Part shown: positions 1 through 5,028 of the stretch, piece by piece
Layout: the number at the start of each line of letters is the position of its first letter
Numbering within the stretch: the first letter of the stretch is position 1
Position numbers and translations under genes: made by a program
Source of the DNA: a virus
Lineage: Duplodnaviria > Heunggongvirae > Uroviricota > Caudoviricetes
Length of the DNA: 5,028 bases
Virus record (IMG/VR): IMGVR_UViG_2802429242_000002
Span: 1-5,028 of that record
Direction: 5' to 3' (one strand)
Notes under the pieces: model-generated
The model's input: only the letters and a program-made list of their open reading frames with translations
What the model was told of the DNA's origin: nothing
Database searches by the model: none

Positions 1-120
1 TCTGACATTCACGGTCAACCAGGCTAACACGTAGAACATGCCCTGCAGGCGTGGTGTACCACTGACCCGGACGAGGACAACGGAAAGTCTGATTGGTAAA
101 ACGTTTGAAAATATTCCGGA

Positions 121-1269
121 TCATTTGCGCCCCCTTACCTCTGAAGGGTTCAGCGACAAATTTATGAGGCAGGCCAGCGCCGAAGCATCATTAATATAGT
201 CATATAAGCTAACAGCCAGCGGAGATTCGGCTTTTGCCAACATAGGATAAAGCTGCTGCAGCCAGACCTGATGAATTGATGAAATGTAGGAACAGAGAAC
301 GCTGGCGTTATGTGCAACGTCGCTCGGTACAGCGGGCTTTGAAAGCTGTTTCTCCATCTGGTTAAAGGCATTGATGTATGCCTCTTTGAACTGGGCAGCA
401 CGTTTACCCGTGAAACCCATAGCAAGAAACGCAAAGCCGTCGCGGGTTATTTGATAGCAAGGTAGTTTGCGGCCTGTGCAATCGGTGTAATCACTCACCG
501 AAAAATTGCGGGCAGTGAATGATGCGGAACATTCAAGCGTGCGGATCTTTTTCAGTACATCGTCATGACGTTTGGAGAAGAAGTTGGCAACAGCCAGGGA
601 TGAAGTAACAGCCTGACCATCAACGATGGCAATTTCAGGTTGAGTGAGGGTTGGGATCGTAGCCATGATGACAGCCTCCGATAACAGTGAATTACCTTCA
701 CCACCGGAAACGCCAATTTCGCTGGTGGTGAACTGAACGGGGTTGGCGTAACCGGCGTTATCGGAAACCGGCGCACCTTTCGGTGCCCCCGTCCAGCCCA
801 CCATAATTTGGGTGTGCGCAGACGCAGACGATAAAAAAAACGCTGGCGCGTCATATATCGCCGATAACATTTCCAGGACGCCAATCCCGGCACCCGCTTT
901 ATAAGGTGCCTGAACAGTGTAACGTCCCGGAATGGCAGAATCAATGTGCTGGTGGTCCTTCACACTCAACAAAATCACGCCTGAATTTCCACAAAGGACT
1001 AAAGCACTCATGCGGGTAGTCTTTGCGAAGATAGATAACGCGCTGTGTTTCTGGCTCCCAACGAATAACATGAACATAAAGTCCTCTTCCGTCACGAAAC
1101 CAGCGGTTAAGTTCCTGCACAACTCGCCCCCCACAGTCAGGTAAAGTTCTCTGTGGTTACTTACAGGCAGGTGATTTGGTAATCTGCATTCATGCCGTAA
1201 CAACAGGTGTTCAGCCACGCGGACCACCAGCTGTTGCGACCAACGGTTATTTGCCGTTAAACTGTTCAT
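121..1269 (-). CDS. Rha-family phage regulatory protein (antirepressor-like), with a ~200-aa N-terminal region of unknown function
   Basis: 382-codon ORF. Residues ~205-305 (TLTQPEIAIVDGQAVTSSLAVANFFSKRHDDVLKKIRTLE ... YQITRDGFAFLAMGFTGKRAAQFKEAYINAFNQME) match the Rha-family signature as I recall it (KRHDnVLr ... TRDGF..LvMGFTG..A.qFK.aYI..FN.ME). Start ATG 1267-1269 overlaps the upstream gene's stop as ATGA (stop 1266-1268), with GGAG 10 nt upstream. The N-terminal half uses E. coli-like codons (CCG, GGT, ACC, GAA, AAC) and its other frames look like shadow ORFs. Alternative internal start ATG at 664-666 (M202) has a strong GGAGG SD 8 nt upstream and would give a 181-aa Rha-only protein. 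Confidence 0.6.
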   Translation of the reverse strand: MNSLTANNRWSQQLVVRVAEHLLLRHECRLPNHLPVSNHRELYLTVGGELCRNLTAGFVTEEDFMFMLFVGSQKHSALSIFAKTTRMSALVLCGNSGVILLSVKDHQHIDSAIPGRYTVQAPYKAGAGIGVLEMLSAIYDAPAFFLSSASAHTQIMVGWTGAPKGAPVSDNAGYANPVQFTTSEIGVSGGEGNSLLSEAVIMATIPTLTQPEIAIVDGQAVTSSLAVANFFSKRHDDVLKKIRTLECSASFTARNFSVSDYTDCTGRKLPCYQITRDGFAFLAMGFTGKRAAQFKEAYINAFNQMEKQLSKPAVPSDVAHNASVLCSYISSIHQVWLQQLYPMLAKAESPLAVSLYDYINDASALACLINLSLNPSEVRGRK

Positions 1270-1850
1270 GCGTTAGTTTCTCCACAACCAGAAGCAATCG
1301 ACGCCACGACGCCCGGAGCTGCACACTCGCGGGCGTTACTCTTTTCCGGCGCACAAAAAACACGAAATAACAGTGTTAAATGCTCCTGCCACTTCGCCAT
1401 TACTTGGTAGCTGTTCTCTTCGATTTGCTCACGCTCAGCCTGATCAATAACTCCATCAGCAGTTGCCTTGCGTAAGTACTGGGAATGCTTGCCAATCCAT
1501 TCTATTGACTCCATCAGCCGCTGATTAATGTCACCATTGTCAATGTCATCAATGACCACCAGCGGCACAAACACCCCATTACTACGACGGGCTATTGCAT
1601 CCGTTACATGCCTGGTACCACTGGCATCCTGTAAAACCATGGCCCACTCGAGTGGAAAAATTTGATCCCCACCGCTACGCAGTCTGTTATGCAATTGATC
1701 TTTTGCTGGGGTGATATCATCAGATTTATACAAACCAAGAATTTCTGCTGCTTCCTCATAGCCATGAGGTAAATCAGCAATCGTTCTTCGTATTGCTGCC
1801 ACCAGCCATGCTGGTTGTTTATCAACTTTCCATTCAGGTTCTTTACCCAC
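1266..1850 (-). CDS. CII-like / YdaT-like early regulatory protein
   Basis: Follows the Cro-like gene on the same strand, the position of lambda cII and Rac ydaT. I favour a GTG start at 1848-1850, with GAGGAA SD 6 nt upstream and a 28-nt gap after the Cro-like stop. The track ORF extends to ATG 1961, but that start and the in-frame ATGs at 1928/1925 lack an SD and would overlap the Cro-like gene by 47-83 nt. The DQLHNRLRSGG stretch loosely resembles what I recall of YdaT-family proteins; family assignment is from memory and position only. Confidence 0.55.
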   Translation of the reverse strand: MGKEPEWKVDKQPAWLVAAIRRTIADLPHGYEEAAEILGLYKSDDITPAKDQLHNRLRSGGDQIFPLEWAMVLQDASGTRHVTDAIARRSNGVFVPLVVIDDIDNGDINQRLMESIEWIGKHSQYLRKATADGVIDQAEREQIEENSYQVMAKWQEHLTLLFRVFCAPEKSNARECAAPGVVASIASGCGETNA

Positions 1851-1878
1851 GGTTAATTCCTCATTTCTGTGGTTACGT

Positions 1879-2142
1879 TTACGCAGCTGAACCGCTAACT
1901 TTTGAATAGCACTCAGGTAATCCATCATTTGGATTGGGGTAAATATCAGGACGCAATTCATGAGGGGTCACGGACCAGTTTCCCAACTCACAAAGTTGTA
2001 AAACCCGTTCTGACGGGACTTGATTGTTAATTACCCAATTAGCGACGGATTGAGTGGACTTAAAACCAAAGCGACGGGCTACTTCAGATAAAGATTTTCC
2101 CGCAGCTTTTACTGCTTTCTCTGTGTAGTTTTGAGATGACAT
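1879..2142 (-). CDS. Cro/YdaS-like helix-turn-helix regulator
   Basis: 87 aa. Sequence SLSEVARRFGFKSTQSVANWVINNQVPSERVLQLCELGNWSVTPHELRPDIY fits the YdaS/Cro-like pattern (HTH followed by a conserved HELRPD motif). Divergent from the repressor gene. GAGGAG SD 6 nt upstream of ATG 2140-2142. Confidence 0.85.
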   Translation of the reverse strand: MSSQNYTEKAVKAAGKSLSEVARRFGFKSTQSVANWVINNQVPSERVLQLCELGNWSVTPHELRPDIYPNPNDGLPECYSKVSGSAA

Positions 2143-2150
2143 ACCTTTCT

Positions 2151-2167
2151 CCTCTGAAATTCAGAGG
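2151..2167. promoter_or_regulatory. Perfect 17-bp palindrome CCTCTGAAATTCAGAGG overlapping the Cro-like gene's SD and predicted transcript start
   Basis: Read directly: 8-bp perfect inverted arms around a single central base. Lies between the predicted PR-like -10 (2169-2174) and the Cro-like start codon. Its sequence differs from the CTAC-N5-GTAG operator family. Confidence 0.4.
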
Positions 2168-2168
2168 G

Positions 2169-2197
2169 ATAATGCTACTTAAAATAGCAAAATGCAA
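2169..2197 (-). promoter_or_regulatory. PR-like promoter for the Cro-like operon (-35 TTGCAT, 17-bp spacer containing operator, -10 CATTAT)
   Basis: Minus-strand sequence TTGCATTTTGCTATTTTAAGTAGCATTAT. It matches the plus-strand element at 4129-4157 (TTGATTTTTGCTACTTTTGGTAGCAGAAT) at 22 of 29 positions with identical layout, supporting paired early promoters. Hexamers are moderate matches to sigma70 consensus. Confidence 0.45.
2173..2189. promoter_or_regulatory. Operator O_R1-like 17-mer TGCTACTTAAAATAGCA
   Basis: Inverted arms TGCTA/TAGCA. Shares the CTAC ... (G/A)TAG half-site pattern with sites at 2196-2212, 2241-2257, 4114-4130 and 4137-4153. Sits in the spacer of the PR-like promoter. 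Confidence 0.5.
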
Positions 2198-2212
2198 CTA
2201 CTTAAAATAGAA
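2196..2212. promoter_or_regulatory. Operator O_R2-like 17-mer AACTACTTAAAATAGAA
   Basis: Exact direct repeat of the 13-nt core CTACTTAAAATAG from O_R1, centre-to-centre spacing 23 bp, comparable to lambda operator spacing. Overlaps the -35 of the PR-like promoter. Confidence 0.45.
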
Positions 2213-2240
2213 ATGACTAGCGTATGTGATGTGAGTAATC

Positions 2241-2257
2241 TTCTACCTATGGTAGAA
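2241..2257. promoter_or_regulatory. Operator O_R3-like 17-mer TTCTACCTATGGTAGAA overlapping the favoured repressor start codon
   Basis: 7-bp perfect inverted arms (TTCTACC/GGTAGAA) with CTAC and GTAG at the same positions as in the other operators. Contains ATG 2249-2251. Confidence 0.45.
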
Positions 2258-2953
2258 GAACAGAAGTATCCAGATTTCGCCAAGAGACTAAACGAGCTAA
2301 TGACAAACAAGGGAATTTCTGTCACCCAACTCAAAAGTCTTGTGGGCGTTACATATGAAATGGCGCGGCGATACACAATCGGCGCTGCGAAGCCTCGTGC
2401 CTCTGTCATGAATAAACTTGCATTGGCTCTGGGGGTATCAGCTTCATATTTAGAATATGGTGTTGGCGAGAGAGAAGGATGTAAGGAAATGACAAGCATC
2501 CCCAATCCAACAAAACCCGATGTATACAGGATAGAAGTTTTGGATCTTAGCGTTAGCGCAGGACCTGGGACCTATATGCTTTCAGACTATGTTGATGTGC
2601 TCTACGCCATTGAGTTCACAACAGAACATGCCCGTTCTCTTTTCGGCAACCGTTCTCAGGATGATATTAAGGTTATGACTGTAAATGGCGATAGTATGTC
2701 CCCTACTCTCGTTTCCGGAGACCGACTGTTTGTCGACATTTCTGTTCGTCACTTCCAGACTGATGGAGTTTACTCTTTCGTTTACGGTAAGACTTTTCAT
2801 GTCAAACGTCTTCAAATGCAAGGTGACAAGCTAGCCGTTCTTTCGGATAACCCCGCCTATGAGAAATGGTATATCGATGAAAAATCGCAGGATCAGCTTT
2901 ATGTAATGGGCAAGGCGTTGATTCACGAATCTATAAAATACAACCGATTGTAA
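2249..2953 (+). CDS. cI/LexA-type prophage repressor (N-terminal XRE-family HTH, C-terminal S24 self-cleaving peptidase domain)
   Basis: HTH region FAKRLNELMTNKGISVTQLKSLVGVTYEMARRYTIGAAKPRASVMNKLALALGVSASYLEYG. Candidate Ala-Gly cleavage site in LSVSAGPG. Serine nucleophile in the GDSMSPT motif and lysine in FHVKRL, as in LexA/lambda cI. Start is uncertain: the track ORF begins at ATG 2192 (253 aa), but 2192 and the ATG at 2213 lie inside the PR-like -35/operator region. ATG 2249 (234 aa) leaves ~9 residues before helix 1 and may be leaderless. None of the three has an SD. Confidence 0.85.
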   Translation: MVEEQKYPDFAKRLNELMTNKGISVTQLKSLVGVTYEMARRYTIGAAKPRASVMNKLALALGVSASYLEYGVGEREGCKEMTSIPNPTKPDVYRIEVLDLSVSAGPGTYMLSDYVDVLYAIEFTTEHARSLFGNRSQDDIKVMTVNGDSMSPTLVSGDRLFVDISVRHFQTDGVYSFVYGKTFHVKRLQMQGDKLAVLSDNPAYEKWYIDEKSQDQLYVMGKALIHESIKYNRL

Positions 2954-2997
2954 AACTCAATCCTTTCAGGATTAAAAGATCTAAAAGGATAATAATA

Positions 2998-3360
2998 ATG
3001 AAATCTGAACTATTTCATAGCGAAGCAAATTCAGAAATTATCACCGCAGATGAGTTTATTGATTTCATAAACTCTTTCAAAAAGCCTTTAATTTGCCAAA
3101 TTTGCGGAAATCAATCATGGAGTGTAGTCGGTACTCTAGAACTTGAAGTTGAAGACAATCAGCCAAAACATCACGTAATCGAAGTTCTCAGCTATGCCCA
3201 ATACAAACCTGAAACTGATAGCGCTATAAATTATCCTGGTGGTATGCCGCTGTTTCGAATCACCTGTGATCACTGTGCACATGTACTTCTTTTTTCTTAT
3301 AAAAAAGCTAGATCATTGATCCAAAAAAGAAAAAATGAAAAAGAAGAGGATGGGAAATGA
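2998..3360 (+). CDS. Hypothetical small zinc-ribbon protein (two CxxC pairs), cargo gene downstream of repressor
   Basis: 120 aa with Cys33/Cys36 (CQIC) and Cys90/Cys93 (CDHC). AAAGGA SD 8 nt upstream of ATG 2998. Lysine-rich acidic tail. Markedly AT-rich (about one third G+C by hand count of 3001-3060, against about half in 601-660). I recognise no family. Confidence 0.7.
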   Translation: MKSELFHSEANSEIITADEFIDFINSFKKPLICQICGNQSWSVVGTLELEVEDNQPKHHVIEVLSYAQYKPETDSAINYPGGMPLFRITCDHCAHVLLFSYKKARSLIQKRKNEKEEDGK

Positions 3361-3989
3361 CGCGACCTTATCTCAGAGCAGTACCAAACTGTGGATCTGG
3401 TATTGATAAGTGTGACCTTTACCCCAATGTTAAGAACAGGCTGCGCGTCGGTATAGAAGAAATGTATACTGATTTTATCGAATCCGCAGATGAAACTTAC
3501 AAAACTGATGGGGGAAATAAAATGTCATCAGTTAGTCGAGAAGAAATTCAAGCACTTTTAGCTGCCAATAAAGCAGAAATGGAGTCCATTGCATCCTCTA
3601 TTAGAGTTGAAATGGCTTTATCTCGCGAGAACACAAACGTTCAGCTAGCATCTCTAAATTCAGCCATCAATTCTATCTCTTCGAAAATCGAAGGCAAAAT
3701 GGACAGTGTTGACGGGGATGTGAAGGCCATCAATGGTAGATTCGAAGGTATACAAGGCCAAATTACTGGAATAAATACAGCCATTAGTGGTATTCAATCT
3801 GGAATTTCTACCAGACTTGCTATTTTTGGAGTTATCATTGCGGTCATAGTTGCATTACCTAGCATAATTTCTGCTTTTAAAGATACTTCGCCAGTAGTTC
3901 AACCAGTTACACAACAACCAAGTGTTAAACATCTCAACCAAGAACCAATTACTCCACAAGTATTACCTCCGCAGGGAAAAGCAAACTAA
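3357..3989 (+). CDS. Hypothetical coiled-coil protein with single C-terminal transmembrane helix and proline-rich tail
   Basis: ATG 3357 overlaps the upstream stop as ATGA, with GAGGA 6 nt upstream. Alternative start ATG 3522 (M56) has GGGGGA 6 nt upstream. Residues ~60-150 are heptad-like and Ser/Ile/Gly-rich; hydrophobic segment LAIFGVIIAVIVALPSIISAF (~154-174); tail rich in P, Q and V. Architecture resembles small phage membrane proteins such as XhlA-like or exclusion proteins, by resemblance only. Confidence 0.65.
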   Translation: MTRPYLRAVPNCGSGIDKCDLYPNVKNRLRVGIEEMYTDFIESADETYKTDGGNKMSSVSREEIQALLAANKAEMESIASSIRVEMALSRENTNVQLASLNSAINSISSKIEGKMDSVDGDVKAINGRFEGIQGQITGINTAISGIQSGISTRLAIFGVIIAVIVALPSIISAFKDTSPVVQPVTQQPSVKHLNQEPITPQVLPPQGKAN

Positions 3990-4012
3990 ACCGGCTTTAT
4001 GCCGGTTTTTTT
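3989..4012 (+). terminator. Rho-independent terminator after the cargo cassette
   Basis: AACCGGC-TTTAT-GCCGGTT hairpin immediately after the TAA stop (3987-3989), followed by a run of seven T (4006-4012). Confidence 0.8.
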
Positions 4013-4113
4013 CTATACAAACGCCCCCTCTTTGTCTTGAATCACATCACAACACATTTAAAAAACATTTTAAATTCAAAGCATTAAACGCATCAACGCA
4101 TATCAAACAAATT

Positions 4114-4130
4114 ATCTACTTTTAGTTGTT
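4114..4130. promoter_or_regulatory. Operator O_L2-like 17-mer ATCTACTTTTAGTTGTT (weaker half-site)
   Basis: CTAC half-site at the conserved position, second half GTTG instead of GTAG. Centre lies 23 bp from O_L1, the same spacing as O_R1 to O_R2. Overlaps the -35 of the PL-like promoter. Confidence 0.35.
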
Positions 4131-4157
4131 GATTTTTGCTACTTTTGGTAGCAGAAT
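4129..4157 (+). promoter_or_regulatory. PL-like early promoter (-35 TTGATT, 17-bp spacer containing operator, -10 CAGAAT)
   Basis: Matches the PR-like element at 2169-2197 at 22 of 29 positions in the same promoter orientation. Located downstream of the repressor cassette terminator and upstream of plus-strand small ORFs, as for lambda PL/OL. Confidence 0.45.
4137..4153. promoter_or_regulatory. Operator O_L1-like 17-mer TGCTACTTTTGGTAGCA
   Basis: 6-bp perfect inverted arms TGCTAC/GTAGCA. Same family as the O_R sites. Lies in the spacer and -10 of the PL-like promoter. Confidence 0.5.
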
Positions 4158-4361
4158 TGTTTTAACAACAACGAACAGGCAGGACGCCCACGAAGTAGCC
4201 GCCTGGGGCATATGAAGTCCAGGATGATTCGTTGAGTCATGTTGTGCCACTAGGCACTCATGTTAAAGCAGGTGTATGAAATGAAAGTCCAGATTTTAAA
4301 CAATAACTGTGAAGTCGTTTAGGCGTAAAACATGACCGCGCGTAGACCAAGGGAGGAAAAA

Positions 4362-4538
4362 GTGGGAATAGTTAGAAATCAAGCAGATATATTGAAAATC
4401 AGCTCTGAATTGCTTGGAGTTTTGAAAAGTGAGCTCACCGCACATGGCATCGAGCCCACTGACGAAAATTTAAGTTGGGTTTTGTCGATTATTCAACAAT
4501 CACTCAAGCCCAGCCTCAGCAAACTTTTTATCGAGTAG
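4362..4538 (+). CDS. Hypothetical small protein, first ORF of the putative PL-like transcript
   Basis: Strong SD AAGGGAGG with a 5-nt spacer to GTG 4362 (58 codons). The track ORF starts at ATG 4332 (68 aa) with only a weak AGG upstream. I see no arginine-rich N-type motif and recognise no family. Confidence 0.4.
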   Translation: MGIVRNQADILKISSELLGVLKSELTAHGIEPTDENLSWVLSIIQQSLKPSLSKLFIE

Positions 4539-4691
4539 TGCTTCGAACTTATCGTAAAGCTTGCTTATGTCGTCTATCGGGTTTTCTGACGTACTGTAAT
4601 TTTTATCTGATGTCATGGCAGCAGTCTGATATGCAGTGTGAGTCTTAACCGATAGTTGGAATAAATAAAGAATTTTTTCTTCTTTGGTCAT
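4500..4691 (-). CDS. Hypothetical small protein (63 aa), convergent with the 4362..4538 ORF
   Basis: ATG at 4689-4691 with AAGGA 8 nt upstream; the track ORF extends to 4733. Sequence MTKEEKILYLFQLSVKTHTAYQ...KFAEAGLE. Overlaps the 3' end of the plus-strand ORF by 39 nt, so one of the two may be spurious. Confidence 0.4.
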   Translation of the reverse strand: MTKEEKILYLFQLSVKTHTAYQTAAMTSDKNYSTSENPIDDISKLYDKFEALLDKKFAEAGLE

Positions 4692-4930
4692 GACTATTTC
4701 CTTCTTGGCTATATGAAAACACCAAGATACCACCGAGCCTGAAGTGGTGAAAAGACAGGCACATAACAGCTAAGTATTTTCAACCAGAGAGAATCCTTAG
4801 CGTTGTGGTGAATGCGCAGGCTGATGCGCGAAAGACATTGCAGCTATTGCGGAAAAGAGCTGTTCGGCGGGGCAATTAAACGCCCGTGAGAGTCTGAAAT
4901 AACCGCAAGCCGGAGATCAGCACCGGTCAC

Positions 4931-4995
4931 CACAACAGCCACTGCTTTGGCGGTACCAGTTTGTACACTTGCCTCCGGCTGGTACCGCTCTTTTT
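4931..4995 (+). ncRNA. Candidate DicF-like small RNA ending in an intrinsic terminator
   Basis: The stretch CTTTGGCGGTACCAGTTTGTAC resembles the DicF segment UUUGGCGGUAUCAGUUUUAC as I recall it from the E. coli Qin prophage, and a terminator hairpin follows as in DicF. Lies downstream of the repressor in the early-left direction, as dicF does relative to dicA. Based on memory, not a search; 5' boundary is approximate. Confidence 0.3.
4949..4995 (+). terminator. Rho-independent terminator (10-bp perfect stem GCGGTACCAG / CTGGTACCGC, then TCTTTTT)
   Basis: Read directly: arms at 4950-4959 and 4979-4988, 19-nt loop, T-run 4991-4995. Confidence 0.7.
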
Positions 4996-5028
4996 ACAAA
5001 ACAGAGAAGAGCATCACCGGACGACGGG

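Follow-up and report, generated by a model that had tools for sequence, protein, structure and literature searches.

The window analysed here, a 5,028-nt stretch of viral DNA (Caudoviricetes; positions 1 to 5,028 of the IMG/VR record IMGVR_UViG_2802429242_000002), is the immunity region of a lambdoid Escherichia coli prophage. Directly downstream of its cI-type repressor lie two overlapping genes, termed A and B (2998-3989), which form a swappable cassette and which, judged by their sequence and setting, are a good candidate for a new anti-phage system. The conserved core of B, a predicted coiled-coil membrane protein, was found beside several unrelated partner proteins, one of them the four-cysteine protein A, and the N-terminal region of B changes with the partner. 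Such modularity, a constant core with exchangeable partners, is typical of sensor/effector systems. The cassette is of a familiar kind, a soluble plus a membrane protein encoded by two genes beside a prophage repressor, while the protein families, the adaptor-matched swapping of partners and the dual-start signal in B are not described within the searchable literature: the protein accessions were not mentioned there, and keyword searches for a described system with the A-B architecture gave no result.

The A-B pair and its exchangeable partners

The features of the cassette are as follows.

2998-3360, plus strand: gene A, open reading frame (ORF) for a cytoplasmic Cys4 (four-cysteine) protein of 120 amino acids (aa)
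3094-3096, 3103-3105, 3265-3267 and 3274-3276, in gene A: codons of cysteines C33, C36, C90 and C93
3357-3989, plus strand: gene B, ORF for a tail-anchored coiled-coil protein of 210 aa, translationally coupled to A
3357-3521, plus strand: B 1-55, partner-specific N-terminal adaptor with the motif RPYLRAVPNCGSGIDKCDLYPN (alignment A1)
3510-3524, plus strand: internal start signal in B, Shine-Dalgarno (SD)-like GGGGGA at 3510-3515 and ATG at 3522-3524 (M56), predicting a 155-aa short form without the adaptor
3531-3812, plus strand: B 59-152, conserved cytoplasmic coiled-coil core, opening with VSREEIQALLAANKAE (invariant columns in alignments A1 and A5)
3813-3881, plus strand: B 153-175, single transmembrane (TM) helix, RLAIFGVIIAVIVALPSIISAFK
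3882-3986, plus strand: B 176-210, Pro/Gln-rich C-terminal tail (alignment A1)

The sequence-only reading of this DNA had proposed that the two genes are translationally coupled. This is what the junction (GGGAAATGACG) showed: the stop codon TGA of A (3358-3360) and the ATG of B (3357-3359) share an ATGA overlap at 3357-3360, in the frame ...GGG AAA TGA. GAGGA precedes the B start codon, and purine-rich ribosome-binding sequences lie ahead of both genes.

The related loci examined were 39 on viral contigs, 11 from species-representative genomes and those belonging to 13 individually retrieved proteins. With few exceptions a small gene directly precedes the B homologue, usually with overlapping stop and start codons, and at least four partner families, mutually unrelated by sequence, were found joined to the B core. 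The partner types and the loci carrying them are listed here.

Cys4 type (the A family): the window, L037/L040/L045, L053, L054-56, L057, L058, L067 and L070
HK542 type, 143-172 aa, motif ERISFITPF...GLKPN...GLY: L001, L006-L033, L038/39, L042, L044 and L049
About 98-aa type: L035, L043, L046, L047 and L051
92-aa type: L034

Partners of 98-99 aa in L050 and L052 did not cluster with the 98-aa type, and two Xenorhabdus loci (L036 and L048) have a short B only, without a dedicated partner. These types were assigned by reading, as automatic clustering merged some of them, probably through an upstream ORF extension common to Xenorhabdus loci. None of the types (HK542, 98 aa, 92 aa or zinc ribbon) had a Pfam match above threshold, and against PADLOC v2 the HK542-type pair and the pair at L059 (see below) gave only noise, the HK542-type partner being unmatched. 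In Xenorhabdus L037, L040/L045, L042 and L049, the zinc-ribbon and the HK542-like partner genes have the common upstream ORF extension MVKCEKCLTLGDVM, about 40 nt upstream. This suggests that partner cassettes are swapped there at a conserved 5' leader or regulatory region.

The N-terminal region of B follows the partner. Homologues of B beside close relatives of the window's A carry the motif (R/K)P(Y/L/F)(L/F)(R/K)(A/V)V..G..(I/V)DK.DLYP, which recurs in relatives at 31-51% identity, and those beside HK542-type partners share another N-terminal sequence, RRLKVVGGSDFEAEFDNS. Next to divergent Cys4 partners (Xenorhabdus, L053 and L070) at most part of the adaptor motif is kept, and the 'KPHLQAV' subgroup (P0009) also lies beside a divergent Cys4 partner. 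On the strength of this motif a Cys4 partner was predicted for P0016 and for P0039; their contigs bore this out in each case, with partners of 118 and 121 aa that have all four cysteines. In Enterobacter hormaechei (L054-56) the adaptor and an A homologue are joined to a different, DUF1640-like, C-terminal half of B, also present in Buttiauxella L052, which places a module boundary inside B, within the conserved helix. These sequence associations fit a docking of A on the N-terminus of B, and mere linkage of neighbouring DNA would produce them as well.

The adaptor may be absent from part of the B protein made. All 27 unique DNA contexts have a start codon (ATG in 23, GTG in the HK542 and Klebsiella types) 1-8 codons ahead of the conserved helix, and in 22 of them an SD-like sequence is found 3-18 nt upstream of it. 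A strict AGGAG or GGAGG was present in 13 of the 27, compared with 2.1% of 12,177 background ATGs of the same loci; the contexts are mutually related, so that a binomial p-value would overstate their independence. The internal SD falls in varied amino-acid contexts (KEE, QEE, GGG, LGD, TEEE and DGGN), which points to selection on the nucleotides, and a close Enterobacter relative has GGAGG at the position of the window's GGGGGA. B is thus predicted to be made in a long (210 aa) and a short (155 aa) form.

That B is a coiled-coil membrane protein anchored at its C-terminus, as first read from the sequence, was upheld by a single hydrophobic stretch at residues 146-178 (mean hydropathy up to 2.73), followed by a 35-aa tail, and by a TM helix at 151-175 in the AlphaFold2 (AF2) model. 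That model has residues 1-60 disordered, a helix at 61-114 (confidence score pLDDT of about 85), a weaker helix at 129-143 and a disordered tail. The membrane is most probably the inner one. Since B has no signal peptide and a large N-terminal soluble part, its N-terminus is predicted to lie in the cytoplasm and its C-terminus, with the tail, in the periplasm. The N-terminal region ranges from 5 to 115 residues among family members. The core follows the consensus [aliphatic]-S/T-R/K-x-E-L/I-x-A-x-L-x-A-N-K-A-E, then MAxWRE, and continues as glycine-containing heptads (INGRFEG IQGQITG INTAISG IQSGIST); the tail has the family consensus QPIIIQVPQ, with P188 invariant (alignment A1).

Both genes are under purifying selection. 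The ratio of nonsynonymous to synonymous substitution rates (dN/dS) was taken against a homologous Enterobacter cloacae locus, synonymous sites being saturated in comparisons with the more distant L054, L056, L057 and L058. It was 0.058 for A and 0.11 for B, within which residues 1-55, 56-152 and 153-210 gave 0.19, 0.028 and 0.19, respectively. With its value of 0.19 and 81% identity to the E. cloacae orthologue, B 1-55 is a coding region.

The sequence-only reading had recognised neither protein as a member of a named family and had suggested profile searches and a PADLOC run. These returned no family above threshold for A or B in Pfam, NCBIfam or PADLOC v2, so that part of the claim stands; the pair is, however, no orphan, as A belongs to phrog_4293 and B to phrog_5820 (E=7e-69), two PHROG families of unknown function, and B has homologues in at least 40 clusters at 90% identity across Enterobacterales. 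The Pfam matches of B all fall below the gathering cut-offs (Baculo_PEP_C, NPV_P10, DUF1664 and CCDC90-like). Baculo_PEP_C (PF04513), a name used in some database records, was rejected as an identity for B at 23.4 bits against a cut-off of 38, and NPV_P10 (PF05531) at 17.7 bits against 29.8; weak matches to both occurred in all 30 B members and were attributed to common coiled-coil composition. The segment of glycine heptads and TM helix matched the toxin protein MakE at E=1.2e-4 (21 bits against a cut-off of 360) and, among solved structures, SmhB (6zz5, E=0.018) and AhlB (6grk, E=1), while Foldseek found nothing in PDB on the question of a pore-toxin fold. This sub-threshold similarity to alpha-pore-forming toxins is a weak hint of membrane activity.

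The earlier description of A as a 120-aa four-cysteine protein was borne out by an alignment of 22 family members, reaching down to 16% identity, in which C33, C36, C90 and C93 are the only invariant columns. On this alignment the pattern is the signature of a Cys4 metal site, with two CxxC knuckles about 55 residues apart, and A probably binds zinc. Individual members gave scattered sub-threshold matches to various zinc-ribbon families, and none of the matches to curated families or folds of this kind was significant; "zinc ribbon" is thus a reasonable label for the motif and not a family assignment. Hydropathy showed no hydrophobic membrane stretch in A. The family is rare: a word-indexed search of 5.8 billion proteins gave six clusters only (E. 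coli, Enterobacter and Xenorhabdus), and an exhaustive profile search of 1.84 billion representatives gave 28 relatives at E<=0.001, mostly of 83-126 aa, with a few far longer proteins matching only locally. Neither tblastn of A against phages nor megablast of 2900-4100 against phage records gave a match.

In two IMG/VR copies (L004, 4643-5050, and L005, 4420-4758) gene A is frameshifted in an A-rich run near its 3' end (CCAAAAAAGAAAAAATGAAAAAG; equivalent to 3317-3345 of the window). One of the products, of 135 aa, runs into B; after the other, of 112 aa, 19 nt remain before B begins. Either assembly errors at the homopolymer or natural variants arising by slippage could account for them.

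The immunity region and its cargo slot

The other features of the immunity region are listed below, from left to right.

121-1269, minus strand: Rha/Ash-type regulator, ORF of 382 aa
1266-1961, minus strand: cII/YmfL-like gene, ORF
1879-2142, minus strand: cro-like gene of the YdaS family, ORF
2173-2211, no strand: OR-like operator pair, two CTACTTAAAATAG sites 23 bp apart (direct repeat D5, inverted repeat I1)
2179-2208, plus strand: PRM-like promoter, TTAAAA-18-TAAAAT (from the scan), overlapping the OR-like pair, as does a divergent PR-like promoter
2249-2953, plus strand: cI-type prophage repressor with HTH_3 and Peptidase_S24 (RefSeq start; the mechanical ORF runs from 2192)
2985-2989, plus strand: SD-like AAGGA, 8 nt before the ATG of gene A
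3988-4015, plus strand: intrinsic terminator at the end of the cI-A-B unit, stem at 3988-4008 with 8 pairs (5 G-C) and a 5-nt loop, then TTTTTTT
4115-4153, no strand: OL-like operator pair, CTACTTAAAATAG-type sites 23 bp apart (repeats D3, D4 and I1)
At the OL-like pair, rightwards, away from the cassette: PL-like promoter, TTGATT-17-CAGAAT (by eye; hexamers below the scan threshold)

As first described, the pair follows a prophage repressor and ends at a strong terminator. The upstream gene matched PF00717 (Peptidase_S24, E=2e-16) and PF01381 (HTH_3, E=2e-5) in Pfam and phrog_4, a transcriptional repressor, in PHROG (E=3e-50); at an identical locus RefSeq annotates it as WP_001343338.1. The operator sites are of the type CTACTT(A/T)4, and 2173-2211 and 4115-4153 form a 39-nt inverted repeat with 79% complementarity. 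They were read as OR and OL because of their overlap with PRM/PR-like and PL-like promoters. Since these pairs bracket cI-A-B, with A and B in the direction of cI, the cassette lies in the slot occupied in lambda by rexA and rexB after cI. This assignment, already made from the sequence, was confirmed independently by the phage HK542, which is annotated with the same layout. The spacer between cI and A has 44 nt (2954-2997), and the scan found no terminator-like site at 2953-2998; over the scan, 6 terminator-like sites were found against 1.6 expected. An internal promoter for B alone was considered and rejected, promoter-like sites not being enriched in the scan (8 against 6.2 expected). A and B are predicted to be co-transcribed with cI in the lysogen. 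Few stretches of a lambdoid prophage remain transcribed under repression, and that between the repressor and PL is among them. Owen et al. (2021, PMC8585504), with reference to Degnan et al. (2007), describe the cI-N interval, where rexAB and bstA are located, as a hotspot of mosaic diversity.

The cassette behaves as cargo of this slot. Of 5,426 complete E. coli genomes, 9 have it at 99% identity or more, and in each of these both proteins are annotated as hypothetical. The repressor with its operator region is present in 206 of the 5,426, and all records except two reach 90% identity or more. As alternative occupants were also seen, the slot exchanges cargo, and the earlier view of the genes as cargo holds. 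Behind diverged repressor copies the slot was read in three sampled genomes. In L060 (3982-5058) and L061 (4046-5131), with repressors 92-95% identical, it holds a ParA-family gene of 358-361 aa; judging from this sample, two of the three carrying it, the gene fills the slot in most of the 206 genomes, and it may be another lysogen-expressed cargo. The encoded ATPase matched AAA_31 (E=2e-29) and, weakly, the candidate system PDC-M28B of PADLOC (E=6e-9 over 38 residues). The third, L059 (3826-4525; E. coli 09-00049), whose repressor is 96.7% identical, has a second and strongly diverged version of the pair, in which the gene for a CxxC...CxxC protein of 115 aa overlaps that for a coiled-coil protein of 126 aa (GGDGGGDDMLEARVAKLE...), the latter ending in a TM helix without a periplasmic tail. 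One alternative allele of the slot thus has the same two-part design. Short partners similar to that of L059, with a glycine-rich DDML/DNML lead-in, occur in L064 and L066.

Base composition fits a cargo as well. The cassette has a GC content of 38% (A 35.5%, B 39.7%), compared with 44.0% for cI and 48.3% for 1-2142, and at third codon positions (GC3) A and B have 26% and 28%, compared with 43% for cI. The claim that the cassette is much more AT-rich than its flanks held against the left side, at 44-48% GC, and failed against the right flank (4013-4740), which is equally AT-rich at 39.4%.

Counting the HK542 type as well, found in 51 of the 5,426 genomes, about 1% of the complete E. coli genomes have a pair of one of the two types. 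The family extends across Enterobacterales, and all copies with examined annotation are called hypothetical. By our own count, the pair lies directly downstream of a prophage repressor in about 70% of distinct contexts. Some of these repressors are S24 proteins of the cI type, with several immunity types among them, and others are short HTH_3/RacR-like proteins; the PL-side genes found downstream of the pairs include N, kilR, ydaE, recE and yfdP. Three remote relatives of A (P0055, P0052 and P0067) also follow a repressor directly and precede a small coiled-coil protein. This protein has one membrane pass, which anchors it at the C-terminus in L064 and L066 and at the N-terminus in L062; the contig of L065 ends before any membrane segment. 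In L062/L063 (2746-2844) the S24 repressor and the remote A relative are separated by a gene for a small membrane protein of the YoaK family, 32 aa long. Exceptions to the linkage are the pairs of Xenorhabdus and Providencia, which are found among other small accessory genes, and that of L066, at a prophage end.

Several observations concern the flanking genes. The cII/YmfL-like ORF overlaps the cro-like gene by 83 nt (1879-1961), probably an artefact of ORF calling, as the RefSeq ymfL (558 nt) starts further downstream. Inside the Rha/Ash ORF (121-1269), at 721-909 on the minus strand, Rfam matched a C4 antisense RNA (721-808, 82.8 bits) and the Hfq-binding small RNA isrK (833-909, 61.7 bits). 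These matches suggest a P1/P7-type c4-controlled antirepressor module, and also that the 382-aa ORF is too long at its 5' end; the Rha family protein is annotated with 321 aa at a homologous locus. Beyond PL/OL there are two small convergent overlapping ORFs, 4332-4538 (plus strand) and 4500-4733 (minus strand, the only one annotated by RefSeq), with PHROG matches of unknown function (phrog_15476, E=7e-50, and phrog_2605, E=3e-33). At the same position L003 has other small genes, one of which encodes a protein with two CxxC pairs.

Possible functions of the cassette

The reading that we favour, with a confidence somewhat short of even, is that the cassette is a lysogen-expressed module of a sensor and a membrane effector, acting by exclusion or abortive infection and analogous, not homologous, to RexAB. 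The argument draws on position, architecture and pattern of diversification. A-B would be accessory cargo of the immunity region, transcribed from PRM with the repressor as far as the terminator at 3988-4015, and would most likely shield the lysogen from other phages. The effector, the conserved part, would be B: its coiled-coil stalk in the cytoplasm would probably form oligomers, possibly trimers, and its C-terminal helix would hold it in the inner membrane, with the short Pro/Gln-rich tail in the periplasm. A would be an exchangeable specificity or sensor subunit docking on the partner-matched residues 1-55 of B. Starting at M56 would yield a short B without the docking region, and long and short forms mixed in one oligomer would set the strength of control by A. 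An infecting phage might perturb A, or its contact with B, upon which the B assembly would act on the membrane, permeabilising or depolarising it or blocking genome entry, so that infection fails. The A-B contact, the oligomeric state of B and the anti-phage activity are predictions from these features.

A wider proposal is more doubtful, although possible: that the pairs belong to an undescribed and widespread class of prophage immune modules, in which a dual-isoform, tail-anchored coiled-coil effector is plugged by its adaptor into unrelated sensors and retargeted by swapping a cassette of about 500 bp. The sensors of such a class would include the Cys4 zinc ribbon, the beta-rich HK542 type, the 98-aa type and others, and the effector would kill through the membrane or block entry.

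Several points weigh against a defence function, or against parts of it. No homology of A or B to phage-resistance proteins was found in Pfam, NCBIfam or PADLOC v2; in PADLOC-DB v2.0.0, A had no match and B matched only PbeC (E=0.0014) and PDC-S06 (E=0.019), in coiled-coil segments. The slot between cI and PL also holds cargo that is not known as defensive, and the Xenorhabdus and Providencia pairs do not lie beside a repressor. Since A adjoins the 5' end of B, recombination in the B core would associate partner and adaptor even without binding. The internal SD and ATG could be a retained ancestral start and not a used one. The AF2 models are of low confidence (pLDDT 65 for A and 60 overall for B), and the likenesses of B to pore toxins and DUF1640, far under curated cut-offs, may reflect coiled-coil or hydrophobic composition.

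The alternative that fares best, although we consider it unlikely, is superinfection exclusion by blocking entry, without abortive infection: the periplasmic tail of B would disturb genome injection and the cell would survive, with A tuning or stabilising B. Prophage exclusion proteins such as HK97 gp15, P22 SieA and T4 Imm are small inner-membrane proteins, and B has a single-pass membrane architecture and would be expressed from the repressor operon. Purifying selection (dN/dS 0.19) acts on the presumed periplasmic part, where the conserved QPIIIQVPQ and the invariant P188 are found. Such a role leaves the large conserved cytoplasmic coiled coil and the exchangeable cytoplasmic partners unexplained, and the B variants of L056, L059 and L064, beside A relatives, stop at the TM helix, without a tail. 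Homology to Sie proteins was not found.

Quite improbable, in our view, is that the pair serves the resident prophage itself, either in the lysis-lysogeny switch or induction, as proposed for RexA/RexB, or in the timing of lysis at the membrane, like XhlA-like or dual-start holin/antiholin proteins. B resembles XhlA-type lysis accessory proteins in having a C-terminal TM helix after a coiled coil, and a dual start is a hallmark of holin/antiholin genes; the position inside the immunity region and the linkage to repressors of many immunity types would also fit. A pair needed by the prophage should not, however, be dispensable, and 197 of the 206 genomes with the same repressor are without it and have unrelated cargo there, such as the ParA-family gene. 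No XhlA, holin or Rex Pfam match was found at E<=0.1, and the copies of Xenorhabdus and Providencia are distant from any repressor.

We also give a low probability to a lysogenic-conversion or addiction cassette, in which B alters the envelope or stress tolerance, or in which a membrane toxin B restrained by A stabilises the prophage. The AT-rich composition of this cargo and its predicted expression in the lysogen are in favour; a small soluble and a small membrane protein under tight translational coupling fit membrane toxin/antidote pairs, and the weak similarities to pore-forming toxins point the same way. Against this, the tie to repressor loci and the many partner types are more like immune systems than conversion genes, no toxin-antitoxin family match was found in Pfam, PADLOC or NCBIfam, and the frameshifted A genes beside an intact B in L004 and L005, which are possibly assembly errors, argue weakly against an essential antidote.

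That A and B form no functional unit, being unrelated neighbours or a B that starts at M56 after an accidental ATGA, as the tblastn match to HK542 beginning at residue 55 and the disorder of B 1-60 in the AF2 model might suggest, is essentially excluded by the dN/dS of 0.19 and the E. cloacae identity of B 1-55, by the N-terminal motif shared with relatives at 31-51% identity, by the overlapping stop and start codons of most pairs and by the co-occurrence of the A and B families across genera.

The mechanism of rexAB is still not understood after 60 years (PMC8585504), and A-B is a compact (330 aa in total) and unrelated occupant of the same slot. Its modular logic can be tested by exchanging partner and adaptor among natural variants. 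If the cassette is a defence system, both its sensor/effector architecture and its use of a dual-start gene would be new, with relevance to the prediction of host range in phage therapy. If it is not, it would still be a conserved membrane complex, predicted to be expressed in lysogens.

Comparison with known systems

The organisation of B resembles that of DUF1640/CCDC90-like proteins (PF07798; MCUR1, CCDC90B and prokaryotic relatives), with a variable head, a coiled-coil stalk with a beta-layer-type opening and a C-terminal TM helix. The beta-layer caps trimeric coiled coils and marks DUF1640 membrane proteins, an example being the motif FVTKTEF of MPN010 (Hartmann et al., 2016, PMC4786415). 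The opening motif of B (V-S-R-E-E / F-T-K-T-E) resembles these patterns in its form [aliphatic]-S/T-R/K-x-E, and the B variant of L056, beside an A homologue, has a weak precomputed match to PF07798. B itself scored 14.7 bits against a cut-off of 33.5, however, and only 1 of 30 family members matched at E<=0.01; the glycine-containing heptads and the Pro/Gln tail are specific to the B family. Solved structures gave no significant match to the profile of alignment A1 or to the L056 variant, and 6h9l, probably a structure from the DUF1640 family, came up with no better than E=0.35. Membership of B in DUF1640 is not established, and the resemblance is architectural only, although a DUF1640-like, possibly trimeric stalk would agree with it.

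Dual-start genes for phage membrane proteins include lambda S105/S107, the holin-antiholin gene, in which the starts are two codons apart, and sieB-esc of P22 and lambda, sieB being a prophage exclusion gene of lambdoid phages. B shares with them a conserved in-frame internal SD and start codon and a membrane-anchored product. It differs in having no sequence similarity to them and in the distance of 55 codons between its starts, by which the long form gains a putative partner-docking region.

With lambda RexA/RexB the cassette has in common the slot between cI and OL/PL, the orientation of cI, the closing terminator ahead of PL, the two-gene unit of a soluble cytoplasmic and an inner-membrane protein, and its character as cargo that is exchanged in the cI-N hotspot. 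The rex genes are abortive infection genes, and lambda lysogens exclude T4 rII and other phages, with loss of membrane potential. RexB passes the membrane four times and RexA has about 279 aa. B, in contrast, has a single helix, at its C-terminus, and a long coiled coil; A, with 120 aa, is a Cys4 protein, and the A and B genes overlap by ATGA. No homology to RexA or RexB was seen among Pfam matches at E<=0.1 or in PADLOC v2.

The nearest phage counterpart is the gp35 pair of HK542 and HK244 (YP_007151771 and YP_007151770; 'immunity region' records EF120457 and EF120458). In the HK542 record, where the repressor and the PR, PRM and PL promoters are called lambda-like, the order is cI, a hypothetical protein of 144 aa, an ATGA-coupled hypothetical protein of 206 aa, PL and N. 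The 206-aa protein is a homologue of B with 77% identity over B 55-175, the tblastn match beginning at residue 55, and has different N-terminal 55 residues (RRLKVVGGSDFEAEFDNS). Its 144-aa partner, predicted to be beta-rich and with the motif ERISFITPF...GLKPN, is unrelated to A, with no tblastn match and no alignment between them. The HK542 pair is as uncharacterised as A-B.

For a demonstrated phenotype the comparison is with Sbash gp30/31, Butters gp30/31 and CarolAnn gp43/44, of mycobacteriophage and Gordonia origin. Their proteins, hosts and gene neighbourhoods are unrelated to those of A-B, which is known here from sequence alone. They share with the predicted arrangement of A-B a prophage-expressed pair of one cytoplasmic and one membrane protein, and such pairs, which their authors liken to RexAB, defend the lysogen against heterotypic phages.

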